A stretch of 16,225 nt of DNA from an uncultured Deinococcales bacterium. GTDB lineage: Bacteria > Deinococcota > Deinococci > Deinococcales > JAAFIG01. The translations under genes were made by a program, and so were the position numbers. Location of the stretch: contig CAXTTL010000012.1 in NCBI GenBank assembly GCA_964247135.1, positions 1 to 16,225 of the forward strand, read 5' to 3'. This document shows positions 145 to 16,141 of this stretch, one piece after another (position 1 is the first letter of the stretch; every line of letters begins with the position of its first letter). The notes under the pieces are model-generated. The model saw only the letters and a program-made list of their open reading frames with translations, did no database searches and was not told the origin of the DNA.

Positions 145-170
145 AGTTTCTCGAGCATTTTTGCTAAATT

Positions 171-1187
171 CTAAATTTCTTCAAACACTTCGGCGTTAAA
201 CCCAACAGGCACTTTGGTCACTTCAGGGCGCGGTTTGTGCCCACTGACACCCGCCAAGTGGTCGATCAAATCCCCAATCACGGCGCTGGCGGTCACCATG
301 CCGCCAGCCCCGCCACCTTGAACAATGACCGTGCCGCAGGCGTCTCCGTTAAAAAGCATGGTGTTACGGCTCGAGGCGGATTGCGCGAGTGGATGGTCTG
401 CCTCGAGAATCACGGGGCGGACTTTGGCTTGCCATTCAGAACCGTTTGGCACGATGCTGCCGACCAATTTCACACGTTTGCCGTTTTTCACGGCGGTCTG
501 CACGCGTTCGCTTGAGAGTCCTTCGATGCCTTTGACCTCGAGTTTTTCAAAAGCGAAATCTGGGTCTACGGTCATTCTTGCCAGGACACAAAGTTTGTGT
601 GCGGCGTCAAAACCGCCAACATCCAGGGTTGGTGGGTCTTCGGCATAACCCAATTCCTGGGCTTCAGATAGCGCAGAGTCGTAACTTGCGCCAGCCTCCA
701 TGCGGGTCAGAATATAATTGCAAGTTCCAGATAAAATCGCGTGAAGCTCGAGCGTGTCCGAGCTTCGAAGCGTGCCGCAAATTGGTCCAATCACGGGCGT
801 TCCTGCCATGACTGAACTCTCGAAGTAGAGTTGACCGTTTTCGGCATACGGTTTTAGGGCATCCCAACGTTCGGCGAGCACGGCTTTGTTGGCGGTGACA
901 ATTGGTTTGCCCGCTTTGAGCTGCGGCAGCATGAACTCGAGAACTTTGGTCGTGCCGCCTATCAAAGCCAGAATGATATCGGCTTGCTCGAGCACGGCTG
1001 GGTCGTCGGAAAACGTCACATTTGGGTATTCAAAATCCCTGGTTTTGCTGGGGTCGCGCACCAAAACGGGGGAGAGGTGAAGATCAAAACCCATGTGCTC
1101 AAAAAGAGCTTTTCGTTTCCAGAGCAAGGACAGGGCGCTGCTGCCCACCGTCCCGCCGCCGATGATGCCAATGTTCAAACGCTTCAT
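171..1187 (-). CDS. hom: Homoserine dehydrogenase, short form without ACT domain
   Basis: GGGTVG Rossmann motif, VTANKA, ESSVMAGTP, SGTCNYIL, AQELGYAEDPPTLDVGGFDAAHK, GGGAGG; 338 aa. Confidence 0.95.
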   Translation of the reverse strand: MKRLNIGIIGGGTVGSSALSLLWKRKALFEHMGFDLHLSPVLVRDPSKTRDFEYPNVTFSDDPAVLEQADIILALIGGTTKVLEFMLPQLKAGKPIVTANKAVLAERWDALKPYAENGQLYFESSVMAGTPVIGPICGTLRSSDTLELHAILSGTCNYILTRMEAGASYDSALSEAQELGYAEDPPTLDVGGFDAAHKLCVLARMTVDPDFAFEKLEVKGIEGLSSERVQTAVKNGKRVKLVGSIVPNGSEWQAKVRPVILEADHPLAQSASSRNTMLFNGDACGTVIVQGGGAGGMVTASAVIGDLIDHLAGVSGHKPRPEVTKVPVGFNAEVFEEI

Positions 1188-1193
1188 GGCTCG

Positions 1194-1199
1194 AGTATA
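1194..1199 (-). promoter_or_regulatory. -10 box TATACT 6 nt before hom ATG (leaderless promoter)
   Basis: Minus strand reads TATACT-cgagcc-ATG; no Shine-Dalgarno. Confidence 0.75.
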
Positions 1200-1203
1200 C
1201 CCG

Positions 1204-1215
1204 TTGGTATACCAA
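1204..1215. promoter_or_regulatory. Perfect palindrome TTGGTATACCAA, candidate GntR/FadR-subfamily operator
   Basis: 12-bp palindrome just upstream of the hom -10 box in the hom/mog divergent spacer; overlaps a second inverted repeat GTATACC-N4-GGTATAC (1195-1212). Confidence 0.45.
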
Positions 1216-1262
1216 AATTAAAGTTTTGAACGAATTGAACTCGGCAATATTCAAACTCGAGA

Positions 1263-1268
1263 TAGACT
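1263..1268 (+). promoter_or_regulatory. -10 box TAGACT 6 nt before ATG 1275 (leaderless promoter)
   Basis: TAGACT-gaacct-ATG. Confidence 0.7.
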
Positions 1269-1274
1269 GAACCT

Positions 1275-1718
1275 ATGATTGATTACGGTGTGCTCTGCAT
1301 TGAAGACCAAAGCGAAGGACTGGCAGCCGTGCGCAAAATGCTGCCCGAGCCTCAATTTAAAGAAGTGATGCTCGAGTCGGTGCCAGACGAAAACGCTTCG
1401 ATCAGGCGGGTGCTGCGAACGATGGTCGAAATGCGAGCATTGCCCTTGGTTTTAACCATTGGCGGTTCGGGCGTTGGCATTCGTGAACGCGTGCCAGAAA
1501 TCACGCTCGAGATCATTGAACGCCAAATTCCTGGCATTGCCGAACTGGCGCGGCTGGCAGGCATTCAAAAATCGCGTCGCGCGGCATTGTGGCGCGGTGT
1601 GGCGGGCTTTAAGGGCAAAACCTTGGTCATCAACCTGCCAGATTGGGAAACGGCGGTCGCTATCGAAGCAATAGCGTCGGTACTGCCGATCACCATCAAG
1701 AACCTCAACGGATTATGA
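1275..1718 (+). CDS. MogA/MoaB-family molybdopterin-binding protein (divergent)
   Basis: VPDE, LVLTIGGSGVGIRERVPE (family TTGGTG..RD.TPE), IPGIAE, RGVAG and LVINLP motifs; stop overlaps the next start (ATGA). Confidence 0.75.
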   Translation: MIDYGVLCIEDQSEGLAAVRKMLPEPQFKEVMLESVPDENASIRRVLRTMVEMRALPLVLTIGGSGVGIRERVPEITLEIIERQIPGIAELARLAGIQKSRRAALWRGVAGFKGKTLVINLPDWETAVAIEAIASVLPITIKNLNGL

Positions 1719-2887
1719 AATCAGTCACTTCTGCCCGAGCCGCCAGCATTCCCAAAAATGTTTTTCTGGCGATGGATCAAGCCAAAGCCAAGGCTCGAGA
1801 TGGCGGTCTGGAGGTGATCGACCTTTCAATCGGCTCGAGCGACCTTGCAGCCCCGTCTGAAGCCTTGCTGGAGCTATCTGTTGCCGCGTTGGACCCAAGC
1901 ACAATGGGTTACGGACTGTATCAATCCAGTTTGCCTTTCCGAGACGCCGCCAGCACTTGGATGAACTCGAGGTTTGACTTGAAGCTCAAACCTCAACATG
2001 TTCTCAGCTTGATCGGTTCGCAAGAAGGGCTGGCGCATCTGTTGTTGGCACTCACCGACCCTGGCGACACGATTCTCGCACCAGACCCAGCCTATCCAAG
2101 CTATTTTGGGGCGTTCGCCTTGGCGGGAGTGCAGCCGTTTTACCTGCCGCTCGAGCCAGAAAACGGCTTTTTACCAGATTTCTCAGGCATCCCCGTGAAC
2201 GTTGCTCGAGACGCGAAGTTGATGGTTTTGAATTACCCGAACAATCCAACGGCTGGCGTGGCGTCGCTTGGGTTCTGGCATGAAACACTCGAGTTTTGCA
2301 AGAACCACAATGTTTTACTGATCCACGACGCGCCGTACACCGAAATGACCTTTGGAAATTATCTTGCCCCGAGCGCCCTGCAAGCCGACCCGAACCTTGA
2401 GCGCACCATCGAGCTTCACAGTTTCTCCAAAACCCACCACATGGCAGGATTGCGGATTGGATTCGCTGCTGGCAACCTCGAGATGCTTGATGCGCTGGCA
2501 CAAACCAAAGGCGTGATCGACTTTAACCAGTACCTCGGCATTCAACGCGCCGCCATCAAAGCGCTCGAATCTGATCCAGCTCGAGTTCGGGCTAATGCCC
2601 AAACGTTTCAAGATCGCCGTGATGCGCTGCTGACGGCACTGCGAAAAATCGGTTGGAACGTGCCAACGCCACAAGCCTCGATGTACGTTTGGGCACAATT
2701 GCCAAGCCAGACCAACTCGTTTGAGTTCTGCGAACAACTCTGCGCTCAAACAGGGGTTGCCCTCGCGCCAGGCAGGGCGTTTGGACTTCAAGGCGAAGGT
2801 TGGCTGCGATTTGCCCTGGTGCGACCGCCCGCAAAGCTCAAAGAAGCCGTTCTGAGGCTCGAGAAATACCTCAAAACCTTGTCGTGA
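1715..2887 (+). CDS. PLP-dependent class I/II aminotransferase (LL-diaminopimelate aminotransferase/AlaC-like subgroup)
   Basis: IDLSIG, GSQEGL, DPAYPSY, LNYPNNPT, HDAPY, HSFSKT (PLP lysine), GLRIG, GEGWLRFAL. Start moved to ATG 1715, which overlaps the upstream TGA. Confidence 0.9.
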   Translation: MKSVTSARAASIPKNVFLAMDQAKAKARDGGLEVIDLSIGSSDLAAPSEALLELSVAALDPSTMGYGLYQSSLPFRDAASTWMNSRFDLKLKPQHVLSLIGSQEGLAHLLLALTDPGDTILAPDPAYPSYFGAFALAGVQPFYLPLEPENGFLPDFSGIPVNVARDAKLMVLNYPNNPTAGVASLGFWHETLEFCKNHNVLLIHDAPYTEMTFGNYLAPSALQADPNLERTIELHSFSKTHHMAGLRIGFAAGNLEMLDALAQTKGVIDFNQYLGIQRAAIKALESDPARVRANAQTFQDRRDALLTALRKIGWNVPTPQASMYVWAQLPSQTNSFEFCEQLCAQTGVALAPGRAFGLQGEGWLRFALVRPPAKLKEAVLRLEKYLKTLS

Positions 2888-2989
2888 ATCTCGAGAAAAC
2901 GTGTATGGAAGGGTGAACACAAGGTGCGCCCCGTCCCGACTGGCTTGCCTGGAGTTTAAAACTGACTTTCCCTAAAGCCAAACGGCGCG

Positions 2990-2995
2990 TATACT
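2990..2995 (+). promoter_or_regulatory. -10 box TATACT 7 nt before greA ATG
   Basis: TATACT-gaacccg-ATG; no SD. Confidence 0.7.
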
Positions 2996-3002
2996 GAACC
3001 CG

Positions 3003-3464
3003 ATGAGCACCAATAAAGTCCGTTTAACCGCCAAAGGCTATCAAAAACTCAAAGAAGAACTCGAGCATCTTCAAACCGTCGAGCGCGACAAAATCAGCGC
3101 CTTCATGGCAGATGTCATGAGTGAGGGCGACATCAGCGAAAACTCTGGTTACGACGACGCCCGCGCCAAAATGGGGGCGCTCGAGAGTCGGATTTTTGAA
3201 CTCGAGGGTGTGCTGTCACGCGCCGAAATTGCCGACGAGGATGAGGGCATCGACGTGGTTGGCATCAGCGCCACCGTCAAACTCGACACGGTGCTGGGTG
3301 GACGCGACGAATTCACTATTGTCAGCACCCACGAAGTTGATCCAAAAGCGGGGCGCATCAGCGACGAAAGTCCGATGGGCATGGCATTGATGGGACGCAA
3401 GGCAGGCAATACGGTGACGGTCAACGGGCGCAAGCTCAAGATTTTAGCCATTCGCTTTGAATAA
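3003..3464 (+). CDS. greA: Transcription elongation factor GreA
   Basis: LTAKGYQKLKEELEHL coiled coil, EGDISENSGYDDA tip with both acidic residues, ISDESPMGMALMG C-terminal motif. Confidence 0.9.
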   Translation: MSTNKVRLTAKGYQKLKEELEHLQTVERDKISAFMADVMSEGDISENSGYDDARAKMGALESRIFELEGVLSRAEIADEDEGIDVVGISATVKLDTVLGGRDEFTIVSTHEVDPKAGRISDESPMGMALMGRKAGNTVTVNGRKLKILAIRFE

Positions 3465-3485
3465 ACCAAACATTATCAAAAGCAT

Positions 3486-3515
3486 GAGGCTCGAGCGCTT
3501 AAACGCTCGAGCCTC
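3486..3515. terminator. Probable bidirectional terminator hairpin between convergent greA and DUF59 genes
   Basis: Perfect 12-bp stem GAGGCTCGAGCG/CGCTCGAGCCTC, loop CTTAAA; weak U tracts on both strands. Confidence 0.7.
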
Positions 3516-3529
3516 CTTGTTGTACATCC

Positions 3530-3910
3530 TTAAACGCTAAACCCAAACATCCGCATTTGGCGCTTGCCGTCTTCGGACATTTTGTTGGTCGTCCACGGTG
3601 GCGTCCAGACAAAATCGACGTTCACGGCTTTGACACCCTCCAGGCGCATGACCGCAAGTTCGACATCGGCACGAATCATGTCTTGAACGGGGCAACCGAC
3701 GCTGGTCAGGGTCATTTCGATGTCCACGATGCCGTCACTCGAGACATCGCACTTGTAAACCAGTCCAAGGTCCACGATGTTGACCGGAATTTCTGGGTCT
3801 TTGACGATTTTCATTGCCTCGAGCACAATGTCAGCACCAGGAATGCCAGCTTCGCCACCCGAAGCAATTTCGCTGGCTGGCGGTAAGACGACAGCAGTTT
3901 CTTCGCTCAT
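3530..3910 (-). CDS. DUF59/SufT-like Fe-S (metal-sulfur) cluster assembly protein
   Basis: VKDPEIPVNIVDLGLVY, MTLTSVGCP, VWTPPWT..MSE motifs; ATGA overlap with the upstream rhodanese. Confidence 0.9.
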   Translation of the reverse strand: MSEETAVVLPPASEIASGGEAGIPGADIVLEAMKIVKDPEIPVNIVDLGLVYKCDVSSDGIVDIEMTLTSVGCPVQDMIRADVELAVMRLEGVKAVNVDFVWTPPWTTNKMSEDGKRQMRMFGFSV

Positions 3911-4224
3911 GATGCACCTCCAAATTCGACTGGCAACCCTTCGGCGTGCCAGGCTTTGATGCCACCCTCGAGGTTGGTCAGTTTAAAACCGTGCTGGGCG
4001 GCGAACTGCGCGGCTTGGGCGCTGCGGACGCCGCCGGCGCACATCAAAACAATTTCTTGATCTTTGGGCATTTCCGTGTAACGGCTGGCAAACTCTGAAA
4101 GTGGAATCAGGGTTGCGCCAGGAATTCGAGCCTCTTCGAATTCATTTTGTTCGCGCACGTCGATGAGGACGGCACCATTTTCAAGGCGGGCTTTGGCGGT
4201 CAGCGGATCAACTCGGTCAAACAT
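3907..4224 (-). CDS. Single-domain rhodanese (sulfurtransferase)
   Basis: LIDVRE..EF..ARIPGA, active loop CAGGVRS, NLEGGIKAW; TACAAT (4236-4231) 6 nt before ATG. Confidence 0.9.
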   Translation of the reverse strand: MFDRVDPLTAKARLENGAVLIDVREQNEFEEARIPGATLIPLSEFASRYTEMPKDQEIVLMCAGGVRSAQAAQFAAQHGFKLTNLEGGIKAWHAEGLPVEFGGAS

Positions 4225-4316
4225 GCGAACATTGTACCTCGAGAGTCTTGGGTCGTTTGTAGCCTTCGCGTCGTGCGGACAACTGACAGGTTTTGTAAAA
4301 GCATTAGAATGAACGC

Positions 4317-4817
4317 GTGAACCGTTTTACACCCGCCCAAATTCCCGAAAATGCCATTTTGATCGATGTACGTGACGAACTCGAGGCGATGGCATCACCG
4401 CTTGCGGCGCTGGCAGGACGGCGCAGTATCATTCGAGCACCACTGACCGACCTCGAGGATGGTGTAACACCAGAAATTCCAAGCGACGCGCAGGTGGTTG
4501 TCGTTTGTGGCAATGGCTCAAAAAGTGAACTTGCCGGCGCGTATTTGCAATCTGCCGGCGCGAGCAACATTAACGTCCTCGAGGGTGGTTTTCGCGCTTG
4601 GAAGCGAGAATTTGAGGGCGAGCAGACGCTCGAGTTTCGCGTTTCAGAAATCGATAACATCCGAGATGCGCTGAGCTTGCAAAGCAAACTCGAGTTGCTG
4701 CCAGGGGTTCGCATGGCGGGAATCGCCAGCGATGGTTTAGCCGTCGTCAGAGGCATCGTGACGCTCGAGCAACTGAAATTGCAATTGAATCTGCTTGGCT
4801 TCTCGCTCGAGGTATGA
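4317..4817 (+). CDS. Rhodanese-domain protein with a C-terminal HMA-like domain
   Basis: LIDVRD, CGNGSKS loop, LEGGFRAW. The last ~65 aa (TLEFRVSEI...LELLPGV...LNLLGF) resemble an HMA fold without CxxC. TAGAAT (4305-4310) 6 nt before GTG. Confidence 0.8.
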   Translation: MNRFTPAQIPENAILIDVRDELEAMASPLAALAGRRSIIRAPLTDLEDGVTPEIPSDAQVVVVCGNGSKSELAGAYLQSAGASNINVLEGGFRAWKREFEGEQTLEFRVSEIDNIRDALSLQSKLELLPGVRMAGIASDGLAVVRGIVTLEQLKLQLNLLGFSLEV

Positions 4818-4837
4818 CCATGTTTGAGGCTTGAGCC

Positions 4838-5755
4838 TCAACGCTTGTTTCGTTCAAGCAAGAACTCGAGATTGTACTTGAATCCTTCCAGTAAACCCCA
4901 TTCTTGCCATTCCTCAGGAATTGCAACTTGCTCGAGACCATCGTGTGAGTTGACGGTTTTCCCGAGGTTTAGCATCTGATGAAGGTACTTTTGCATGTCG
5001 GCAATCAAGTGACGGTCACTGGGTTTCCCGTGTCCTGGCAGAATCGTTTTGAATTTGAGCGACTCGAGTTTGGAAAGCGTCTCAACCCAGACTTCAGGAA
5101 TTCCATGACCCATAAAACCGAGATGTTTTTCGAGCACCAAATCGCCCGCAAAAAGGATTTCGTTATCGATCAGCATCACCGAATCCGAACCCGTGTGACC
5201 AGCAAACTCGAGGACTGTGGCACTGCGTTTGGAGCCGTGAAGCTCGAGTTGATGATCGAATGTGATGGTCGAAAAAGTGGGTTCCAGGGTTTTGACAATC
5301 TCGAGTTCGGATTCAAGTTCGCGCACCTGAGCCTCAAGAATTTTGGCTTTTAAAGGTTCAGTCTCGAGCGCCAGATTTGCCTGGGTTTTCTCGAGCATGA
5401 CGGGAAAATCGTCCGCTTCAGACTGAAACCGTGCCATTCTTTCCTGCATTAATCCTCGGGTGATGACGCTCGAGACGATTTGAGTATCCGCAAAAACTTG
5501 GTTACCTCTGGTGTGATCCAAGTGATGGTGCGAATTGACCAGCACTGAAACGGGTTTGCCCGTGAGTTCTTCGGCGGCGCGACGCAAATCTGATGCCGCA
5601 GATTCTGATGCCATTGAATCCCAAACCAAGGTAAAATTGCCAAAATCGACGATTCCCGCATTCGATACTGTAAAACCAGCATCGCTCGAGATGGCGGCAA
5701 AAACACCGTCGGTTGGTCGCTCGAGTCGAAAATACTTGGATTCAAACGAAGTCAT
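4838..5755 (-). CDS. Metallo-beta-lactamase-fold hydrolase
   Basis: SNAGIV, NSHHHLDHTRGN (HxHxDH), GHTGSD, FAGDL, LPGHG; TAGAAT (5767-5762) 6 nt before ATG. Confidence 0.9.
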   Translation of the reverse strand: MTSFESKYFRLERPTDGVFAAISSDAGFTVSNAGIVDFGNFTLVWDSMASESAASDLRRAAEELTGKPVSVLVNSHHHLDHTRGNQVFADTQIVSSVITRGLMQERMARFQSEADDFPVMLEKTQANLALETEPLKAKILEAQVRELESELEIVKTLEPTFSTITFDHQLELHGSKRSATVLEFAGHTGSDSVMLIDNEILFAGDLVLEKHLGFMGHGIPEVWVETLSKLESLKFKTILPGHGKPSDRHLIADMQKYLHQMLNLGKTVNSHDGLEQVAIPEEWQEWGLLEGFKYNLEFLLERNKR

Positions 5756-5826
5756 AATGTCATTCTAACAAGCGGGTACGCACTTTGACGCGTCTCAAGT
5801 GACGTTTAAGAACGTAAACTGCTGCC

Positions 5827-6051
5827 ATGAAAAAAATTGACAAACACGGTGAACTCGAGCTTGAACCGTTTTCGTACCGCGCCACCAAAGACGGTTTGGT
5901 GTTCCTCGAGTTTCGCGGCGCAACCGTGAAAACCATTGCGGGAGAAAACGCCAAGAAATTCTTGAAGAAAGCCGGTTCGCTGGACGGACTCGAGTTGCAA
6001 CTGGTGCTGGCAAAATTGACGGGCAATTTCAAACACGGCAACGAAAAATAG
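5827..6051 (+). CDS. Small hypothetical protein (74 aa)
   Basis: Fills the gap between the MBL and GH2 genes; TAAACT (5815-5820) 6 nt before ATG; all three CTCGAG sites read Leu-Glu in this frame; ends AKLTGNFKHGNEK. Confidence 0.75.
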   Translation: MKKIDKHGELELEPFSYRATKDGLVFLEFRGATVKTIAGENAKKFLKKAGSLDGLELQLVLAKLTGNFKHGNEK

Positions 6052-6090
6052 CGAGACTCGATCCCGATTGGCATCGTATAGTACCCATAG

Positions 6091-9303
<3,213 letters not shown>

Positions 9304-9310
9304 AATTCTT

Positions 9311-9354
9311 CCTCTCATCCCCGACCCTTCTCTCCAAGGGGAGAAGGGAGTTTT
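9311..9354. terminator. Hairpin between convergent lacZ and alkD; terminator and/or REP-like palindrome
   Basis: Stem CCCTTCTCTC/GGGAGAAGGG (9325-9348, one G-U), loop CAAG, then AGTTTT; preceded by C-rich CCTCTCATCCCCGA. Confidence 0.6.
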
Positions 9355-10057
9355 ATTGTTCTACACGATGTATTCGAGATTTCTCGTTTCGCTCGAGTGC
9401 CTTCAAAGCTTCGCGTTTCGAGAGGCTCGAAAGCTCATGTTGATGCTCAAGTACGAAGTTTTTCACGGCTTCAGGGTTGACGTAAGAATATTCGCGCAAT
9501 GCCCAGCCGATGGCTTTGCGAATAAAGAATTCGCTGTCGTGCGCATTCTCGAGAATAAATTTGAAAAGTTTCGATTCGTCGGTTTTACTTTTCAATCCGA
9601 GTTGGTGCAAGATTGCCGCGCGGCGCAACCAGAAGTTCTCGGTTTGCGCCCAACGCTCGAGAATTGGGGTTGATTCAGGGTACTTCAAACCGATTGCACC
9701 CACGTTATGAACCAGCGAATCAACCGTGTCCCACCAGCTTTTTGTTAACACCAAACGCTCGAGCAAATCCAAATGCTGCAATTCCAGTTTTTTGCGGAAG
9801 CACTCGAGATAATCGCAAGCCACATACTGATACTCGCGTTCGGGAGATGCCCAAAGCTCGAGTACCAAAGTTTCGTCAAATGGTTTTTTCAGTGCGCCAG
9901 TCTCGAGAAATGCTGTTTTTGTAAGCAATTTTCGTTTGGGCGACACAATCCCCAGAAACGGAAATTGATTGCGCATGTAGGCACTCATGGCTTTGGCTCG
10001 GGCTTCATTGCGGTGCGGCTCGAGGGTATTTTGAATGTGTTGCAAGAGGTCAGACAT
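9353..10057 (-). CDS. AlkD-family DNA alkylation repair protein (HEAT-like repeat glycosylase)
   Basis: AMSAYMRNQFPFLG, LW..PEREYQY, KSWWDTVD, NFWLRRAAILHQL, EFFIRKAIGWALREY, LSKREALK. Confidence 0.9.
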   Translation of the reverse strand: MSDLLQHIQNTLEPHRNEARAKAMSAYMRNQFPFLGIVSPKRKLLTKTAFLETGALKKPFDETLVLELWASPEREYQYVACDYLECFRKKLELQHLDLLERLVLTKSWWDTVDSLVHNVGAIGLKYPESTPILERWAQTENFWLRRAAILHQLGLKSKTDESKLFKFILENAHDSEFFIRKAIGWALREYSYVNPEAVKNFVLEHQHELSSLSKREALKALERNEKSRIHRVEQ

Positions 10058-10090
10058 GTTTCCTCGAGGTTTTAAGATTGTTTGTTGGAT

Positions 10091-10516
10091 TCATTTTTTG
10101 GGGTTGAGGCTTTGTATTTGCAAACCTTCCACCGCCTCAAAATCTTTTACATTATGCGTGACCAGTACGAGATCATGCTCGAGGGCGGTGGCGGCGATCC
10201 AAGCATCACCTGGTGCAATGTGCCGTCCAACGCTCCGAACTTGCGCTTGTAATTTCGCCCAATACATGGCGGTTGTGTCGATTGGTTCTATTGTTGTGTA
10301 ATTGTCAAGATAATTCTCGAGATTTTGGAAACGTTTATTGCCCCATTTTCTTAGAAATGCGCCGTATTGCATCTCAGCAACAGTCTGTAAGGCTATAAAC
10401 CCTTGATGATCTTGTAACACTTTTCTGTAGTCACTTGCCAGCGAATGTTTGTTGTAAATGTAACTGAGTACGTCGGTGTCAATCAAAACAGGGTCTTTCA
10501 AAATGCTTGAATTCAT
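10091..10516 (-). CDS. PIN-domain (VapC-family) toxin
   Basis: VLIDTDVLS, TVAEMQYG, GDAWIAATALEHDLVLVTHNVKDF; start overlaps the upstream stop (ATGA). Confidence 0.9.
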   Translation of the reverse strand: MNSSILKDPVLIDTDVLSYIYNKHSLASDYRKVLQDHQGFIALQTVAEMQYGAFLRKWGNKRFQNLENYLDNYTTIEPIDTTAMYWAKLQAQVRSVGRHIAPGDAWIAATALEHDLVLVTHNVKDFEAVEGLQIQSLNPKK

Positions 10517-10956
10517 TTTTGTGGCTCGATCATCGCCTCAAGCAATTTGCGTTCTCGAGAACTAATTCCAGTTTTTAGAAATTCAGGACTTTCTTGACGC
10601 ATTTCCCGAATGGCTTTGTCAAATTCTTCGCGTTCCTTGGCGCTGATTCCTGAAGTGACCATGTTTTTAAAATTTAATGGTGGTTTTGCCTTTTTCAACA
10701 ATATCGCATGTTTAGGATTGACCACTCGAGATTGAGAATCCGTGTCCTCGATCAAGTCGCCCAGTTGTACGTTTTCGCCCGTTATGGTTTCAAGTCCTGC
10801 CAGCACCGCACTGACCGTATCCAAATCGATTCGTTTGCTTGGTTTTCGCGCCAGGGCATAGACCGTGTTTGGCGCAAGCTTGGAGACTTGCACCACACGG
10901 TAGGCGCTAATGTTGTGCTGTTCGAGGTATTTTCCGAGGTTGAATCTTAGGGTCAT
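10513..10956 (-). CDS. Cro/C1-type (XRE) HTH protein, putative antitoxin
   Basis: N-terminal LGKYLEQHNISAYRVVQVSKLAPNTVYALAR..RIDLDT HTH; charged helical C-terminal extension; coupled to the PIN gene; TAAACT (10968-10963) 6 nt before ATG. Confidence 0.75.
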   Translation of the reverse strand: MTLRFNLGKYLEQHNISAYRVVQVSKLAPNTVYALARKPSKRIDLDTVSAVLAGLETITGENVQLGDLIEDTDSQSRVVNPKHAILLKKAKPPLNFKNMVTSGISAKEREEFDKAIREMRQESPEFLKTGISSRERKLLEAMIEPQK

Positions 10957-10995
10957 GCTGCCAGTTTAGCATAGTATTAGCAATTGGCACCAATA

Positions 10996-11985
10996 TTACT
11001 CGAGCAGCAAATCTTGTGGCAGTTCATAGCCCAAATGAACGTAAGCATGGGGCGTGACCATTCGCCCCCTGGAAGTGCGTTTGATAAATCCAAGCTGAAT
11101 CAAATAAGGCTCGTAAACGTCCTCAATGGTCAAGGCATCCTCGGAAATGGCGGTGGCGAGCGTCTCGAGTCCAACCGGTCCACCGGCGAATTTGGTGACC
11201 ATCATCTCGAGCAGTTTGACATCGCGTTCGTTGAGTCCAACCGTGTCGTAACCCATTTTGTCCAGCGCGTCTTCGGCGCGGGTTTTGGTGATGACCTCTT
11301 CGCCCGCAACCTGGGCGTAATCGCGCACGCGGTTGAGAAGGTTTTTGGCAATGCGCATCGTGCCTCGCGCCCGCGCTCCAATCTCGAGCGCCGCGTCCGG
11401 TTCGATGCTGTAGGCGCGAATTAATGCTTCGCGCTCGAGACTCTGGGCGAGTTCTTCTGGGGTGTAAAACGCCAGGTGTTCGATGATGCCAAACCTCGAG
11501 CGCATCGGTCCAGTAATCAAGCCTGGGCGTGTGGTCGCGCCGATCAGGGTAAATCTTGGAATCGGCAGTTGAATGCTCCTCGCCGCAGGTCCTTGCCCGA
11601 TCACAATATCGAGTTTGAAATCTTCCATCGCGGGGTACAAGTGCTCTTCGGCGACGCGTCCAAGCCGGTGAATCTCGTCGATGAACAGCACGTCGCCCTC
11701 CTCGAGCGAGTTGGTCAGGATTGCCGCCAGATCGCCTGGCTTTTCGATGGCTGGACCCGAGGTCACTTTAATGTTCACGCCCAATTCGGCGGCGATGATG
11801 TGCGCCAGCGTGGTTTTGCCCAAGCCAGGAGGTCCGAATATCAAGGTGTGGTCGAGCGCCTGCCCTCGCGCTTTGGTCGCCTCGAGGTAGACCGAAAGTT
11901 TGGCTTTCAAACGTTCCTGACCGACGTAATCCTCGAGTCGGCGTGGACGGTTCGCACCTTCAAAATTGGGGCTGGGCTGGGTCAC
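10996..11985 (-). CDS. ruvB: Holliday junction branch migration helicase RuvB
   Basis: RP..LEDYVGQ, GPPGLGKTTLA (Walker A), LFIDEIHRL (Walker B), LYPAMED, GATTRPG, RSRFGI, RGTMR, YEPYLIQ.G. Confidence 0.97.
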   Translation of the reverse strand: MTQPSPNFEGANRPRRLEDYVGQERLKAKLSVYLEATKARGQALDHTLIFGPPGLGKTTLAHIIAAELGVNIKVTSGPAIEKPGDLAAILTNSLEEGDVLFIDEIHRLGRVAEEHLYPAMEDFKLDIVIGQGPAARSIQLPIPRFTLIGATTRPGLITGPMRSRFGIIEHLAFYTPEELAQSLEREALIRAYSIEPDAALEIGARARGTMRIAKNLLNRVRDYAQVAGEEVITKTRAEDALDKMGYDTVGLNERDVKLLEMMVTKFAGGPVGLETLATAISEDALTIEDVYEPYLIQLGFIKRTSRGRMVTPHAYVHLGYELPQDLLLE

Positions 11986-12002
11986 TGGGAAATCACCAAA
12001 CC

Positions 12003-12008
12003 ATTATA
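12003..12008 (-). promoter_or_regulatory. Consensus -10 box TATAAT upstream of ruvB
   Basis: Minus strand TATAAT-ggtttggtgatttccca-GTG (17 nt to the ruvB start). Confidence 0.6.
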
Positions 12009-12140
12009 TTCTGTTTTTAGCGAAATCTCGAGTGTCTCAATCTACGATTGCGCTTCAACCTTCATGCAAAGCCAGTATATTGAACGTGTGTTGAACAAAA
12101 ATCAATGGCGAGCAGACATTTTAAGCCTCGAGAAGAACGT

Positions 12141-13208
12141 ATGAAGCTCGAGGATTTGGGCTGGAACGCGTACTTCGCAGAACAATTTGAAGCCCTCAAA
12201 ACCGAAGAAAGTTTCGCAGCTCGAGTTTCAGTGGTCGAAAAAGAGGCTTTTATCATCAGCTCTGAACGCGGCGTGCAAAAAGCCAGCGTCTCAGGAAATT
12301 TTAGGTTCGCCGCCCTGGTTCGCAGCGAATTTCCAGCCGTCGGCGACTGGGTGATCGTGCGCGAGAATCTTGGCGATATTGAGCAAACCATTCTGGCAAT
12401 TTTGCCGCGCAAAACCTGCTTCTCGAGGTCGGCGGTGACCGGCAAAGACCGTCTGGGAAATGCGGTCATGAGCGAACAGGTGCTCGCCGCCAACCTCGAT
12501 TACGTGTTTGTGGTCATGGCGCTCGACAACGATTTCAACTTGCGCCGCGCCGAACGGTACGTGATTGCCGCCAAAAGCAGCGGTGCCAAACCAGTTCTGA
12601 TTTTAAGCAAAGCTGACGTTGCCGCTGATGTTCCAAATTTAATTGCCCAACTCGAGGAAACCTGTCCAGGCGTACCGATTCACGCCATCAGCAAATTTCA
12701 AAGCTCGACGCTCGAGGTGCTGAAGCCGTATTTGAGCAAAGGTAAAACGGTGGTGTTGACCGGGTCTTCTGGCGTTGGAAAATCGACGCTCATTAATCTT
12801 TTGCTTGAGTCTGACCAAGCCAAAACCAGTGAAGTTCGCTCGGGCGATGGCAAAGGGCGTCACACCACCACCTGGCGCGAGTTGTTTGTGCTGCCTGGCG
12901 GTGCGGTCTTGATTGACAATCCTGGCATCCGCGAGATTGGCGTATGGACACCGAGCGTCGAAGATACTTTTGCCGACATCGAAGCCCTGGCAAATGAATG
13001 CCGTTACAGCAAATGCACCCATACCAAAGAGCCAGGTTGTGCCGTGCTGGCGGCGTTAAAATCGGGCAAACTCGAGAAAAAACGCTATCAGAATTATCAA
13101 ACTCTTGCCGAAGAGGCGGGTTTGATTCGCACGCAAATGTCGAACAAAATCAGGTCTAAAATTCACGAAAAACAACGCAAGCAGGGCAACGCCAAAACGA
13201 GGCGTTAA
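12141..13208 (+). CDS. rsgA: Ribosome small subunit-dependent GTPase A
   Basis: PAVGDWV OB fold, LAANLD, SKAD (G4), GSSGVGKSTLIN, KGRHTTT, DNPG, CRYSKCTHTKEPGC zinc finger. Start at MKLEDLGW (12141) preferred over 12105. Confidence 0.95.
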   Translation: MKLEDLGWNAYFAEQFEALKTEESFAARVSVVEKEAFIISSERGVQKASVSGNFRFAALVRSEFPAVGDWVIVRENLGDIEQTILAILPRKTCFSRSAVTGKDRLGNAVMSEQVLAANLDYVFVVMALDNDFNLRRAERYVIAAKSSGAKPVLILSKADVAADVPNLIAQLEETCPGVPIHAISKFQSSTLEVLKPYLSKGKTVVLTGSSGVGKSTLINLLLESDQAKTSEVRSGDGKGRHTTTWRELFVLPGGAVLIDNPGIREIGVWTPSVEDTFADIEALANECRYSKCTHTKEPGCAVLAALKSGKLEKKRYQNYQTLAEEAGLIRTQMSNKIRSKIHEKQRKQGNAKTRR

Positions 13209-13217
13209 AGCTCGAGC

Positions 13218-13667
13218 TTAAACTTCTGGCGCTGGAAATGCCTCGCGGAACGAAAACGCAAACTGGCTCGAACCATTTTGGCGCAAATGCTCGAGGCGTT
13301 CTTTAGACTCGAGCACAGTTGGGACATGACCTGTCGGAATCCACCACATCGCAACCATCGCGTTTTCCATTTTCTCAAACCATTCGGAGCGACGTTTCAG
13401 AATATCGGTATGGGCACTTTTATAAACGTATTGTTTTAAGCTCTCGAGATTGTCCCAGACGCTCATGTTGACAATGATGAAGTCGTCATCGAATGGGCGC
13501 AAGCTGGTCGCGTCGTTGCCCTCACCTTGCAAGCGCCAGACAAAACCTTCGCTCGAGTCTGCAAGCGCGTTGATGCGATCAAGATTATTCACAAAGTCCG
13601 TCATTTCTGGAGACTCGAGCGGGAAACGCATTTTCGCAATGTTGAGTTGTGCCAGTTCGTAAGGCAT
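13218..13667 (-). CDS. DUF3291-family protein
   Basis: LAQLNIA, F..NLDRINALA..S.GFVWRL, IVNMSVW, H...LKRRSEWF, WW.P.GH.PT, AFSF; TAAACT (13679-13674) 6 nt before ATG. Confidence 0.85.
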   Translation of the reverse strand: MPYELAQLNIAKMRFPLESPEMTDFVNNLDRINALADSSEGFVWRLQGEGNDATSLRPFDDDFIIVNMSVWDNLESLKQYVYKSAHTDILKRRSEWFEKMENAMVAMWWIPTGHVPTVLESKERLEHLRQNGSSQFAFSFREAFPAPEV

Positions 13668-13903
13668 GGCTCGAGTTTACAGCACAAAGACCTTAAGCCC
13701 CTCGGCGGTGCTCTCAAAAAATTTCATAAAATCGCTGGTTTGAGAAATTAGTGACCAACCACAAACGTTAAAGAAAGTGTGCTGCAACCAATTTCAATTG
13801 CAGTGACCTTCATATGGATTCCACCTCGAGATGGTTATAGTGAACTGAAGTCTGCCACCGTGGCTGGCTGCCCAACCTTAAGTTTTTGCACCCAGGAGTT
13901 CAT

Positions 13904-14398
13904 ATGAAACGTTCCGCATTTGTTGGTATTTTACTGTCCGCCATTGTTCCAGCATTCTTGTTCCACTCCAGCGCCGCCATGCCGAGCATTGTCGGTGTTG
14001 CCTCCGGCGATCCGCAATTCAGCACTTTGGTCACCGCCTTAAAAGCCGCCGGTTTGGTCAAAACCCTCGAAGGCAAAGGACCGTTTACGGTTTTTGCCCC
14101 GACCAACGCCGCGTTTGCCAAAATCAAAAAAGCCGATTTGGATGCGCTCCTTAAGAACAAAGCAGAATTAACCAAAGTGCTTTTGTATCACGTGGTGGCT
14201 GGCAAAGTCATGGCTGCGGACGCCATGAAAATGAATGGTAAAACGGCAAAAACCGTCGAAGGCTCGAACCTTGACATTTCGGTCATGGGCAAGGTGCTCG
14301 AAGTGAACAATGCCAAGGTGACCAAAGCCGACATCGAAGCCTCAAACGGCGTGATTCACGTGATCGACACCGTCTTGATGCCAAAAATGATGAAGTAA
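13904..14398 (+). CDS. Secreted fasciclin (FAS1) domain protein
   Basis: Signal peptide [70 protein letters not shown] at 13894-13898 supports ATG 13904; possible -10 TATAGT at 13836-13841. Confidence 0.93.
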
Positions 14399-14415
14399 GT
14401 CAGTTTTAAAACTGA

Positions 14416-14447
14416 GGCGCGATTCTTGAACGGATCGCGCCCTTTTG
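14416..14447 (+). terminator. Rho-independent terminator after the fasciclin gene
   Basis: Stem GGCGCGATTC/GGATCGCGCC (14416-14441), loop TTGAAC, followed by CTTTTG. Confidence 0.7.
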
Positions 14448-14450
14448 ATG

Positions 14451-15173
14451 TCAAGCCAAGGGTCTTTCCAGCTCGAGCTTCAAAAACGACTCGAGCGCCA
14501 CATGCGTCATGACATCCACACCGCGTTGTAAAACCTCTTCGGGTTGGTGCGCCTTGTCACCCACATAATTCGAGACGGTGCAAACGCAACCCGCCTCGAC
14601 GCCGCGCAGCATGGCAATGGTAAAAATGGCGCTGGCTTCCATCTCGACAGCTTTCGCGCCGCGTTTGAGGCGTTCCTCTTTGACCCAAGGTGGTCCGTAA
14701 TAGGCATCACCGCTCGAGATCATGCAGACGTGATGTTTGATGTTCTCGAGTTCGGCAATGTCGGCGCTGGCTTTTAACACGCGCCAGGTCGGCAGCGGCA
14801 CGGCAGGACCCTCGCCCAAGTACAATTTGGTCGTGCCATCAAACGGCAAACTGCCCTGCACGATCACCAAATCCGTCGGCTCGAGTTCGGGTTTTAACGA
14901 TCCACACGTGCCAACGCGAATGAAAACCGTTGACCCCAACTGAATCATTTCCTCGAGCACAATGGCGGTGGTCGGGCAACCCATGCCGGTGGTTTGCACG
15001 CTGACGCGTAAGCCTTTGTAGCTTCCCGTATAGCCCAGCAAGCCACGGTATTCGGTGTACAAGACTGGATTATCAAAAAACGTGTTGGCAATGTACGTGG
15101 CGCGTCCAGGATCGCCTGGCAGCAAAACATAGGGCGCGATATCGCTCGGTTCGGCTTTGACATGAATCGGCAT
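14451..15173 (-). CDS. Purine nucleoside phosphorylase, DeoD/hexameric PNP-UDP family (paralog 2)
   Basis: MPIH, LLPGDPGRA, RGLLGYTG, GMGCPT, IRVGTCG, VEMEAS, TVSN; TAAACT (15184-15179) 5 nt before ATG. Confidence 0.88.
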   Translation of the reverse strand: MPIHVKAEPSDIAPYVLLPGDPGRATYIANTFFDNPVLYTEYRGLLGYTGSYKGLRVSVQTTGMGCPTTAIVLEEMIQLGSTVFIRVGTCGSLKPELEPTDLVIVQGSLPFDGTTKLYLGEGPAVPLPTWRVLKASADIAELENIKHHVCMISSGDAYYGPPWVKEERLKRGAKAVEMEASAIFTIAMLRGVEAGCVCTVSNYVGDKAHQPEEVLQRGVDVMTHVALESFLKLELERPLA

Positions 15174-15187
15174 GTTTCAGTTTACGA

Positions 15188-15913
15188 CTAAAGCGGTTTT
15201 TCAGCCTCGAGTTTTACAATCGTCTCGAGTGCCACCAAAACCATATTGTCCACGCCGCGTTTTAAAACTTCATCTGGCACCAAACTTTCGTCGCCAATGT
15301 AATTGCTGACTGTGGCAAGACAGGCGGCTTCCATGCTGCGAAGGTGTGCCACCGTAAACACCGCACTGGCTTCCATCTCGAGTCCCAAAACACCCCTGGA
15401 TGTGAATAAACCTCGAGCCTCCTCAGCGGTCACGGCATAAAACGAATCGTCAGAGGCAATCAAGCCCACAGCGTGCGGTAAATTCGCTTCTCGAGCGGCA
15501 TCTTCGGCGGCGCGGACGATGCGAAACGTGGCAATGGGTGTGTGGTTGCCCTCGCCCATGTACTGACGGGTAGTGCCATCTCGAGCCAAGCTCGCTTGGG
15601 CGATGACCAGATCGGCTGGTTTGAGGTTCGGGCTGACGCCGCCGCAGGTTCCAACCCGAATGATGACCTTTGCACCCAGCATGGCGAGTTCTTCGCAGGC
15701 AATTGCGGCGCTCGGGCAGCCCATCATGCTGGTTTGCACACTGACCCGAATGCCCTTGTATGTGCCAGTAAAGCCCAGCATTCCACGGTGTTCGGTGTAC
15801 AGTTTTGCATTCTCGAGGAAGGTGTTCGCAATGTACTTGGCACGGTTTGGATCGCCAGGTAAGAGCACGTAAGGGGCGACATCTCCAACTTGAGCACGCA
15901 AATGAATCGGCAT
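15188..15913 (-). CDS. deoD: Purine nucleoside phosphorylase, DeoD/hexameric PNP-UDP family (paralog 1)
   Basis: MPIH, LLPGDPNRAKYIA, RGMLGFTGTYKG, MGCPS, IRVGTCGG, SDDSFY, LEMEAS, TVSN; TAGACT (15924-15919) 5 nt before ATG. Confidence 0.88.
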   Translation of the reverse strand: MPIHLRAQVGDVAPYVLLPGDPNRAKYIANTFLENAKLYTEHRGMLGFTGTYKGIRVSVQTSMMGCPSAAIACEELAMLGAKVIIRVGTCGGVSPNLKPADLVIAQASLARDGTTRQYMGEGNHTPIATFRIVRAAEDAAREANLPHAVGLIASDDSFYAVTAEEARGLFTSRGVLGLEMEASAVFTVAHLRSMEAACLATVSNYIGDESLVPDEVLKRGVDNMVLVALETIVKLEAEKPL

Positions 15914-15945
15914 GAATCAGTCTAACGCGACCAATCTCGGGGAAT

Positions 15946-15984
15946 CAAAAGGTGAGCCGAGCAGAATAGCCATCCGCTCGGCTC
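15946..15984 (-). terminator. Hairpin/terminator downstream of the tRNA-like RNA
   Basis: Minus strand GAGCCGAGCGGA...TCTGCTCGGCTC (15984-15954) followed by ACCTTTTG; lies upstream of the deoD -10 box. Confidence 0.6.
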
Positions 15985-16007
15985 GAGTGTACCGCCCAAT
16001 TTTTTGA

Positions 16008-16141
16008 CACCAACACGTTTAAGCCCGAAATTCATTTTTAGACCGTTGTGTTCTACCTTTAAACTACCAACCCATCTGGCGGGTCGGGCAGGAGATGAGC
16101 CTGCATCCAACGATTGCCGACCTCGAGCGTTTGACTTGGCG
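16008..16141 (-). ncRNA. Circularly permuted tRNA-like RNA (YrlA/Y RNA-like)
   Basis: Hand-folded minus strand: CGTTG, GAT, T arm GCAGG-CTCATCT-CCTGC, acceptor CCGACCC-GCCAGAT-GGGTTGG, TA, D arm GTTT-AAAGGTA-GAAC, A, CAACG (pairs with CGTTG); outer helices CGCCAA/TTGGTG and GCTCGAGGT/ATTTCGGGC. Ends approximate. Confidence 0.7.

Follow-up and report, generated by a model that had tools for sequence, protein, structure and literature searches.

A word that is the target of a restriction enzyme is expected to be avoided, and CTCGAG is the word on which restriction-modification systems of the XhoI/PaeR7I type act. The reverse tendency is known from the Dcm/Vsr system of Escherichia coli, where short-patch repair biases the genome towards a palindrome and leaves a modest excess of CCWGG. 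The classic case of a hyper-abundant word is the highly iterated palindrome of cyanobacteria, HIP1 (GCGATCGC) (PMC4390886; PMC5861425), which reaches 300–2,700 copies per Mb (PMC4390886, Table 2). It is accompanied by GATC and CGATCG methylases, and a periodicity of 10–90 kb has been reported for it (PMC5861425). HIP1-poor cyanobacteria possess alternate HIPs (GGCGCC, GCsGC, and rCCGGy), for each of which Elhai reports a specific methylase (PMC4390886), and Xu et al. argue for selection on HIP1 and against its replenishment by biased repair (PMC5861425). CTCGAG has 0 occurrences among the words in the accessible text of Elhai 2015 (PMC4390886), and we found no published description of its hyper-abundance in Deinococcales. 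Another class of repeated words is the DNA uptake sequences, USS in Pasteurellaceae and DUS in Neisseriaceae, oriented and non-palindromic motifs of 9–12 bases with flanking preferences, a density of about 1 per kb, reported even spacing, and a demonstrated uptake bias. They are described as originating by mutation and recombination, as scarce both in rRNA and in coding DNA under constraint, and as having more than doubled how often the peptides encoded by them occur (PMC2817400; PMC7811141).

In the window, by which we mean the whole analysed stretch of 16,225 bases from the genome of an uncultured Deinococcales bacterium, CTCGAG occurs exactly 132 times between positions 150 and 16127 (8.1 per kb), as the earlier note had counted by hand, and base composition predicts 0.27 per kb, close to the 0.25 estimated there. 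In 200 dinucleotide-preserving shuffles of the window the mean was 3.38 and the maximum 9, and none of the 200 reached 132. The excess is not confined to this contig: the genome contains 33,925 copies (6.7 per kb, 24.7-fold above base composition, roughly one per 150 bases in genic and intergenic DNA), CTCGAG is its most frequent hexamer, and the density is at least 2.56 per kb in 386 of 386 contigs, with a median of 6.8. The trait is present in 19 of 19 genomes of the family, spread across five genera, and it reappears in genus g23 of a different family, where G156 and G157 possess it and their congener G158 does not. In genus g7 the word is apparently avoided (26–1,372 copies per genome). 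The earlier note had guessed Deinococcota as the lineage, and this proved correct.

The likeness to HIP1 proposed in the earlier note is, in our judgement, the right one. Each is a short palindrome rich in GC that occurs in great excess throughout the genome, inside genes in every frame as well as outside them. Each is clade-wide, is retained between relatives above control words, and deviates mostly at the outer positions. CTCGAG has six letters instead of eight, is another word in another phylum, and is the denser counterpart of the two, with 4,300–8,600 copies per Mb. The alternate HIPs are likewise different palindromes, 6-mers included, that take the HIP role in particular lineages, and close relatives may differ in them as G157 and G158 do here. 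Both HIP1 and the alternate HIPs have their methylases, whereas no cognate was found for CTCGAG in the families searched.

Our preferred reading, which we hold with about even confidence, is that CTCGAG is a HIP-type highly iterated palindrome under a lineage-wide, sequence-specific force, most likely molecular drive and not a benefit conferred by each site. The force would act on the DNA itself, with point substitution turning near-matches into CTCGAG, and would resist the loss of sites wherever function permits. A putative CTCGAG-reading protein may bias the correction of mismatches or the conversion of genes from one genome copy to another. By an alternative route, it may bias which DNA of the clade is taken up and recombined. 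Either way, alleles with CTCGAG would be transmitted preferentially.

Comparison of congeners (6.3 kb, 5 genomes) gives a retention of 0.75 for CTCGAG against 0.38 for other hexamers, and identity at synonymous positions is 0.91–0.92 within sites against 0.68–0.71 at flanking third positions. In pairwise comparisons 290 sites are common, 103 are private to this genome and 97 to the relative; the sites thus turn over at equilibrium. All 58 sites of the aligned 6.3 kb (58/58) lie in ungapped columns and only 2 of 40 indel boundaries fall at a site, where 3.6 are expected, so that the sites originate by point substitution and not by insertion. The ruvB gene of the window (10996..11985, minus strand) carries nine sites, some on Leu-Glu pairs conserved phylum-wide and others on Leu-Glu pairs newly made by residue replacement in the genus (alignment columns 23, 40, 189, and 279). 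The retention and these replacements bear out the earlier proposal of a process at the DNA level, one that both creates and keeps the sites.

Density drops with rising functional constraint, since it is highest within 20 nt downstream of stop codons (13.6 per kb), lower in intergenic DNA (9.35 per kb, short gaps), lower again in coding DNA (6.5 per kb), and lowest in predicted tRNA genes (about 2 per kb; 10 sites in 66 genes, two of the predictions being dubious) and rRNA. The rRNA check proposed beforehand was carried out on the closed family genome G011, where 4.4 kb of rRNA contain a single site against 14–22 in the 3-kb flanks, and site-free stretches of rRNA genes extend over 1.2–1.7 kb. 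Restriction-modification genes of low GC (0.44–0.49) already contain 3.8–7.3 sites per kb. Molecular drive is supported because several of these properties match published ones of uptake sequences (PMC2817400; PMC7811141): origin by mutation and recombination rather than insertion, scarcity in rRNA and constrained coding DNA, a more than two-fold rise of the encoded peptides, and frequent occurrence just downstream of genes. Against drive in the form of an uptake signal stands the motif, a palindrome of only 6 bp that occurs 6.7 times per kb, in place of an oriented, non-palindromic 9–12-mer at about 1 per kb. The flanks of the hexamer hold less than 0.1 bit per position and their complementarity is not beyond chance; the unit is the bare hexamer CTCGAG.

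The retention of orthologous sites is equally expected from purifying selection on functional sites, and this argues against drive. In such a case an abundant protein of chromosome organisation, replication or segregation would bind CTCGAG, and ordinary purifying selection would maintain thousands of weakly beneficial sites, which is the reading that Xu et al. favour for HIP1 (PMC5861425) and which we regard for CTCGAG as rather unlikely. Retention far above matched hexamers, at synonymous positions too, and the stability of the trait across five genera agree with it. The gaps are slightly more even than exponential (CV 0.96; 10.7% above 300 nt against 13.2% expected), at most a weak counterpart of the even spacing of uptake sequences, but intergenic spacing is near random and without consistent regularity beyond 11 nt, with site pairs at par with expectation at 12–35 nt, at 0.85 of it at 36–59 nt, and at 1.12 at 90–149 nt. 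A weak hint of local compensation within 30 nt (20 cases against 11.9 expected, P = 0.011) does not appear at distances of 15 or 60 nt, and it comes from compared pairs that share this genome's sites. A further point in favour of functional sites is a fixed-offset spike, with a site starting exactly 2 bases past the stop codon in 199 of 4,132 genes; the window has two such intergenic sites, at 2890..2895 after the gene at 1643-2887 and at 13211..13216 after the gene at 12105-13208. This hints at a position-specific effect that pure drive does not predict. On the other side, density merely follows relaxed constraint, long stretches of rRNA genes do without the word, and no candidate protein was found. 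In coding DNA, co-occurrence of sites relative to within-gene permutation is 0.00 at 2 codons, 0.53 at 3, 0.55 at 4–5, 0.87–0.88 at 6–11, and 0.94 at 12–19, a repulsion that at first resembled diminishing returns but is specific to translated DNA, as the gradient is seen neither in seven control words in coding DNA nor in intergenic DNA. The motif therefore carries a measurable cost in coding DNA, which the force opposes.

The leading mechanism of the earlier note was an orphan methyltransferase with biased repair; the alternatives given there, among them a nucleoid signal and an uptake sequence, are possible readings. Following the proposal made by Elhai for HIP1, a conserved orphan methylase for CTCGAG/TCGA would mark the sites and methyl-directed or very-short-patch repair would restore them; we consider this improbable here. 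Variants that differ from CTCGAG by one letter become less frequent from the outer positions towards the middle of the word (summed counts of 4,847 at position 1 and similar at 6, 4,087 at 2/5, 2,264 at 3/4), the same kind of bias as Elhai reports for HIP1 (PMC4390886). Genomes with the trait also encode many methylases. A cytosine-5 methylase is present in 18 of the 19 genomes of the family but in 7 of 22 from sister families, and eleven matches to three methylase families (Eco57I, N6_N4, C5) were obtained in G157, against none to the four families searched in the trait-less G158. In addition, the accessible part of a 2026 preprint gives CTCGAG among the methylated motifs of hot-spring communities, the taxa not being named there. 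Nevertheless, our search, confined to four Pfam families (not including D12 and MT-A70) and the XhoI-linked methylase in mostly incomplete genomes, found no methylase common to the trait-bearing genomes or assignable to CTCGAG. In the closed genome G011 the four families yielded no type II methylase standing alone; what it has are three type I methylase subunits, a type ISP enzyme, and a single cytosine methylase, which sits in an HD-CE and ORC/Cdc6-like operon. The cytosine methylases of G011, G157, and G042 are only 28–29% identical to one another. By the same search cytosine-5 methylases are missing from G008, and N4/N6 methylases from both G011 and G015. In Dcm/Vsr, too, sequence-specific short-patch repair pushes a genome towards a palindrome, but its effect is small against the approximately 25-fold excess here, and Vsr was not found in this genome.

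The putative reader is not a restriction-modification system of the XhoI type. The word is the same, and the nuclease family and its linked methylase type exist in the phylum, but CTCGAG is enriched here and not avoided, and none of the 19 family genomes yielded a member of the XhoI endonuclease family (PF04555); elsewhere in the phylum G021 and G033 have it and G031 has a broken copy. The linked methylase type was detected in 18 of 364 phylum genomes at E <= 1e-30, 17 of them at 42% identity or more and G007 at 27%, the latter being the sole match in the family, with none in this genome. It is present in the low-density genus g42 and absent from the densest g13 genomes; enrichment thus mapped against gene presence, as had been suggested, shows that this type fails to track motif density over the 364 genomes. 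This genome encodes four typed two-gene methylase-nuclease pairs (NgoPII, Eco29kI, MvaI/BcnI, and PvuII types), and each pair with a typed nuclease points to a purged word and not to CTCGAG. There are also a fifth nuclease with a weak NotI-like match, methylases of type I and MmeI-type, one large type IIG/BREX-like gene, and one further methylase gene of 466 aa to which no target was assigned. The sole orphan-looking methylase of the genome was rejected as a candidate, being part of the PvuII-type pair and occurring also in CTCGAG-poor genomes.

Returning to molecular drive, its methylase-independent form is a tentative proposal that we rate as possible but doubtful. A so far unrecognised repair, recombination, or uptake factor reading CTCGAG would operate throughout the family and in some members of a distant genus, would have been switched off in close relatives, and would have rewritten codon choice and thousands of residues. 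No CTCGAG reader protein was found, and no gene was shown, short of whole-proteome phyletic profiling, to be common to trait-bearing and missing from trait-less genomes. If the proposal holds, HIP-type palindromes, HIP1 included, would be neither methylation marks nor structural signals, but traces left by a bias in how DNA is transmitted among bacteria that recombine and may be polyploid.

A bias of codon pairs, dipeptides, or translation, with CTC-GAG as the favoured spelling of an abundant Leu-Glu, can be regarded as refuted and has almost no probability left. By our own ORF-based gene calls, which are not a curated annotation, 27,794 sites are coding, of which 17,416 (63%) are in the CTC-GAG frame, and tRNA genes with the matching anticodons GAG (Leu) and CTC (Glu) are encoded. 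However, intergenic density exceeds coding density, which bears out the earlier note's argument against protein or codon bias, and 10,378 coding sites fall in the remaining two frames (4,102 and 6,276). Shuffling does not reproduce the excess either: ten shuffles that preserve each protein and the codon usage of each gene gave 3,781–3,949 sites against the 27,794 observed, removing 86% of the coding sites. The codon share of Leu-Glu pairs, another check proposed there, is 17,416 of 22,644 (77%) written CTC-GAG against 5% expected, whereas outside such pairs both are minority codons, CTC with 15% of other Leu codons and GAG with 32% of other Glu codons. Leu-Glu itself stands at 2.36 times its expectation and Glu-Leu at 1.01. 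Because of this skew, the deficit under synonymous shuffling, and the ruvB replacements that create Leu-Glu, the force on CTCGAG overrides coding preferences.

An artefact of assembly, binning, or contamination is refuted and its probability negligible, for although the draft is fragmented (386 contigs, the biggest 116 kb), 84% complete, and known as assembled contigs, the excess is on every contig and in the 18 other of the 19 separate family assemblies, one of which is a single contig, and orthologous sites lie at the same positions.

Within the window, 91 sites are read CTC-GAG (Leu-Glu), 13 as xCT-CGA-Gxx, and 16 as xxC-TCG-AGx. The gene of a GH2 beta-galactosidase (6112..9303, plus strand) has 28 sites in 3,192 bases, spread over all three frames, two of them being 6330 (Val-Ser-Ser) and 7784 (Thr-Arg-Ala), and an aminotransferase gene has a site at 1794..1799 (plus strand) of the GCT-CGA-GAT type (Ala-Arg-Asp); these three translate as the earlier note had claimed, and the gene content of the window supports its statement that no responsible gene lies there. 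Of the fifteen sites it had called non-coding, twelve are outside called genes (150, 1190, 1256, 2890, 3490, 3506, 4238, 10063, 12027, 13211, 13670, and 13825). Site 12127 is ambiguous, since it falls 22 nt into the longest rsgA-like ORF and an ATG follows further along that ORF, and 15982 and 16122 fall within an open-ended putative ORF of 100 aa. Two of the intergenic sites form a pair 16 bases apart (3490..3511) between the genes at 3003-3464 and 3530-3910.

The hexamer CTCGAG occurs exactly 132 times in the window, in agreement with the hand count of the earlier note, and its excess, which that note had put at about 30-fold, was never matched by any of 200 dinucleotide-preserving shuffles (mean 3.38 copies, maximum 9). 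The same note had considered that the excess might be confined to this contig; instead the word is present in all 386 contigs of G000, the draft genome (5,091,702 bases, GC 52.7%, 84% complete, without an assembled 16S gene) in which the window forms bases 1–16225 of contig C12, at densities from 2.56 to 11.3 per kb (median 6.8). In total the genome carries 33,925 copies or 6.66 per kb, which is 24.7-fold the 0.27 per kb expected from base composition, and CTCGAG is its commonest hexamer, the runners-up GCTCGA and TCGAGC (about 14,900 each) both overlapping it. One sequencing run contains 5% of the sampled words, in the form of contigs.

The CTCGAG excess in G000 is not coding bias. With ORF-based gene calls (4,402 genes, 83% of the genome), coding DNA holds 27,794 copies (6.55 per kb), 17,416 of them in the frame CTC-GAG, 4,102 in xCT-CGA-Gxx and 6,276 in xxC-TCG-AGx, and the density rises to 9.35 per kb in short intergenic gaps (2,170 gaps, 238 kb, GC 45.9%), where 2,226 copies stand against a first-order Markov expectation of 55. 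Synonymous shuffles, in which codons were permuted within each gene with proteins and per-gene codon usage preserved, left 3,781–3,949 copies in ten replicates. The excess thus persists when measured against codon-preserving shuffles, and the claim that protein or codon bias alone is insufficient holds; the three examples given for the other two frames also translate as the earlier note stated, and of the 15 sites it called "non-coding", 12 are in no called gene and three are ambiguous. The share of Leu-Glu pairs encoded as CTC-GAG, which had been proposed for comparison with independent codon usage, is 76.9% (n = 22,644) where codon use elsewhere would give 4.9%, CTC serving for 15% of Leu and GAG for 32% of Glu outside such pairs. 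CTCGAG outnumbers CTCGAA by 14.8:1, against 0.48:1 predicted by codon use, which works out at a roughly 30-fold bias for each site. Leu-Glu is also the most over-represented of all dipeptides (observed/expected 2.36, against 1.01 for Glu-Leu), and the dipeptide counts amount arithmetically to roughly 13,000 extra pairs.

The iterated unit is the bare hexamer. Its flanks carry less than 0.1 bit per position, the intergenic sites having A at -3 in 41% of cases and G at -1 in 36%, and an extended palindrome was rejected since the complementarity of flank pairs does not exceed chance (GCTCGAGC-type pairs make up 12.5%, where the two margins predict about 15%). Variants one substitution off are most frequent at the outer positions, with summed counts of 4,847 for position 1 (position 6 similar), 4,087 for positions 2/5 and 2,264 for positions 3/4. 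Gaps between sites average 148 nt (CV 0.96, maximum 2,644 nt), and the sole periodicity seen in them is the 3-base codon periodicity.

The density of CTCGAG is higher where constraint is lower. It reaches 13.6 per kb in the first 20 nt past stop codons, and between genes it is 11.1 per kb for convergent, 9.5 for tandem and 7.6 for divergent orientation. Density in rRNA, a check suggested by the earlier note, was followed in G011, the closed single-contig member of the family, where the 16S gene has no site and the 23S gene one, against 14–22 in the 3-kb flanks; the 16S genes of this genome (about 0.86 and 3.31 Mb) are unlinked to its 23S genes (about 0.72 and 1.51 Mb). Predicted tRNA genes contain 10 sites in 66 genes, two of the predictions being dubious, and the real cases lie in stems. 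A tight tRNA run on contig C157 of G000 (about 3282–3938, numbered at least 7 to 11 on the contig) includes tRNA-Leu(GAG) and tRNA-Glu(TTC), and several of its genes have CTCGAG in acceptor or anticodon stems. Behind protein genes, CTCGAG starts exactly 2 bases past the stop codon in 199 of 4,132 genes, with 28, 71 and 57 genes at offsets 0, +1 and +3 and a background of about 35–45 per position; the sites at 2890 and 13211 are examples in the window. The context of this spike is T[AG]A-A-N-CTCGAG with no longer repeat in common, and we estimate that the weak flank preference accounts for only about half of it.

In an alignment of window 2958–9294 with four genomes of the same genus (82–85% identical), CTCGAG stands at 85 positions in one genome or more, and at 26 of these all five genomes have it. 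Between pairs of genomes, retention is 0.75 for CTCGAG against 0.38 for all other hexamers, identity within sites is 0.91–0.95, synonymous positions included, and that of flanking third positions 0.68–0.71. Gain and loss are in balance pairwise (290 sites shared, 103 in G000 only and 97 in the relative only), and alternative alleles are mostly one or two substitutions off. Neither 6-bp insertion nor cleavage with rejoining was accepted as the source of the sites: all 58 G000 sites in the stretch lie in ungapped columns, and of 40 indel boundaries just 2 coincide with a site where 3.6 were expected. The Leu-Glu pairs of ruvB that are conserved throughout the phylum are CTC-GAG in the enriched genomes and not in G158 (one site) or G020 (none), two other genomes of the phylum, and in the genus of G000 new Leu-Glu pairs have arisen by residue replacement in four columns. 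The data show a strong, site-specific and directional force on DNA. Selection on the function of RNA and of proteins works against it, and the force suffices to bring residue replacements to fixation.

Coding sites are found together less often than expected at short range. With proteins fixed and word-bearing Leu-Glu pairs permuted within each gene, the co-occurrence ratio is 0.00 at 2 codons (0 vs 82), 0.53 at 3, 0.55 at 4–5, 0.87 at 6–7, 0.88 at 8–11, 0.94 at 12–19 and about 1.0 at 20 codons and beyond, a gradient absent from seven control dipeptide-and-word pairs. The zero at 2 codons is due to the total absence of the reversed word GAGCTC, the product of a tandem pair, and for this reason tandem CTCGAG pairs never occur. 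GAGCTC has 0 copies in the 5.09 Mb of G000 and mostly 3–25 in the family (G008 568, G010 161, G015 114); elsewhere G156 has 2, G157 has 30 and sister lineages have hundreds to thousands, and no gene accounting for the absence was identified in G000 or its family. Among intergenic CTCGAG pairs the sole depleted class is 7–11 nt (0.52), with 1.03 at 12–17 nt and 1.22, mainly at 3' ends, at 18–23 nt. Since the repulsion is absent from intergenic DNA, a density-dependent reading of "diminishing returns" was dropped; the graded repulsion would instead reflect a cost arising when translated mRNA contains self-complementary CUCGAG pairs.

Mapping the enrichment across Deinococcota, as the earlier note had recommended, covered 364 genomes and places it in every one of the family's 19 genomes (five genera, 4.3–6.8 per kb) and in two genomes of genus g23 of another family, G156 (about 8.6 per kb) and G157 (about 7.0), against a chance level of about 0.3 in their congener G158. 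G157/G156 and G158, differing more than 20-fold, are a natural on/off pair for tracing the cause; the 23S genes of G157 and G158 are 88.5% identical, each being about 79% identical to that of G011, and the loci examined have a GC of 0.48 and 0.50, respectively. G042 has about 3.6 per kb and several genera of two other families 1.5–3.5. In genus g9 (32 genomes) CTCGAG is about as frequent as the reversed word, and the large genus g7 (111 genomes, 26–1,372 copies per genome) appears to avoid it. G327, an unpublished genome among those mapped, supports none of the claims made here. Among named records the nearest RuvB, 73% identical, belongs to a Deinococcota bacterium.

As the cause we favour, with about even confidence, a molecular drive with a putative CTCGAG reader, which would work through biased repair or gene conversion, or through biased uptake with recombination; several of the properties tested for CTCGAG match those published for DNA uptake sequences (PMC2817400 and PMC7811141). 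A serious rival, possible though on the doubtful side, is that each site has a function, as PMC5861425 argues for HIP1, the highly iterated palindrome of cyanobacteria. Viral contigs were set aside as evidence on the phages of the family: among at least 120 matching stretches, the 80 loci listed are for the most part phage DNA of high GC content (58–73% in the 25 densest), in which CTC-GAG is nothing unusual as a codon pair, and they are uninformative on this point.

The leading mechanism of the earlier note, an orphan methyltransferase with biased repair, has been weakened and now seems distinctly improbable, as the families searched show no shared methylase, no XhoI nuclease was found in any of the 19 family genomes and no Vsr in G000. 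The search for a CTCGAG methyltransferase, which that note had also called for, took in four Pfam families and the XhoI-linked type and found none shared; the trait is not explained by a known CTCGAG enzyme or a shared methylase, D12, MT-A70 and unknown families lying outside this search. In G000, methylases whose partner could be typed are paired with NgoPII-, Eco29kI-, MvaI/BcnI- and PvuII-type nucleases and, fifth, with a weak NotI-like match (contigs listed for pairs or purged palindromes: C14, C178, C36, C189 and C207). We take their targets to be GGCC (NgoPII), CCGCGG (Eco29kI) and CAGCTG (PvuII), and the specificities of the five pairs presumably fit several of the near-purged 6-bp palindromes, namely GGGCCC (1 copy), CGGCCG (3), AGGCCT (4), CGTACG (5), GGATCC (7), CCGCGG (11) and CAGCTG (15). 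The genome further has a type I system and two MmeI-type enzymes, along with two methylase genes of 1,499 aa and 466 aa, the latter patchy in distribution.

The orphan-looking methylase beside alaS (C36) is not an orphan because a divergent PvuII-family nuclease adjoins it, and the one beside proS (C4) is patchy in distribution and broken in G005. TaqI_C-type gamma methylases occur on short contigs of G007, G012 and G016, and the pair compared (G007, G012) is 28% identical and therefore not one orthologue. Screening G000 for [DNS]PP[YFW] with motif I returned known genes, two false positives (an aconitase and a BTAD-AAA-TPR regulator) and an NPPY ORF on C24, which we take to be a putative protein methylase. 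Type I methylase subunits number three in G011; a specificity subunit adjoins two of them, and a type I restriction subunit lies close to the other. G011 also has a type ISP enzyme and one cytosine methylase, and no N4/N6 methylase was found there. This cytosine-5 methylase lies on contig C1 (about 4,978,850–4,983,680; locus L152, 2850–7684) in a four-gene operon whose other members are an HD-CE nuclease-like protein, an ORC/Cdc6-like ATPase and a protein of 313 aa without a Pfam match; the operon resembles a defence module. Between G011, G157 and G042 the cytosine methylases share 28–29% identity. Of the four Pfam families searched, G157 has many methylases, G158 none, and none were seen in G156 (58% complete).

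Restriction-modification of the XhoI type is dismissed, its nuclease family being found in 0 of 19 family genomes and its linked methylase unmatched in G000 and out of step with density. Elsewhere in the phylum G021 and G033 have the nuclease family and G031 a broken copy, and the type of the methylase beside the G031 nuclease (P0001) appears in 18 of 364 genomes at E <= 1e-30 and does not track CTCGAG density in the comparison with gene presence proposed in the earlier note: the type is present in genus g42 (0.7–0.9 per kb), absent from the densest genomes of genus g13, and within the family reaches only a 27% match in G007. In G030, of a genus with only moderate CTCGAG enrichment, contig C11 (locus L092, 676–2424) carries a methylase with 51–52% identity to the XhoI-linked one. 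What comes next downstream is a Na/Ca-exchanger gene and not a recognisable nuclease; the methylase may be an orphan, the annotation covering the downstream side.

To judge from published abstracts, HIP1 has been known for about three decades, and no cause or function has found acceptance. CTCGAG is missing from Elhai's survey of HIP1 and alternate HIPs (PMC4390886, supplement aside), and we found no account of its hyper-abundance in the literature, where the supplements of Elhai 2015, Xu 2018 and a 2026 preprint might list relevant motifs; part of that preprint gives CTCGAG among the methylated motifs of hot-spring communities, the taxa not being named there. The present case is a second HIP-like system, in another phylum and with a different and denser word. 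It offers contrasts largely missing from HIP1 studies, namely G157 against G158, many intermediate sister lineages and a genus that appears to avoid the word, and these make the origin of iterated palindromes an answerable question of comparative genomics. It also gives the extent to which a DNA-level force remodels proteins, Leu-Glu being 2.36 times as frequent as the residue frequencies would give. In these genomes CTCGAG density distinguishes native from imported DNA, and work based on codon usage, binning or restriction needs to allow for it.

Two further elements of the window recur elsewhere. A stretch of 60–80 bases at and just past the end of the beta-galactosidase gene (9289–9371) is found at 85–92% identity on other contigs (G000:C76, G004:C77 and G001:C970) and looks like a small dispersed repeat. 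A 170-aa ORF at 13886–14398 has several paralogous copies of 66–76% DNA identity in G000 (C105, C221, C229 and C201) and its relatives.
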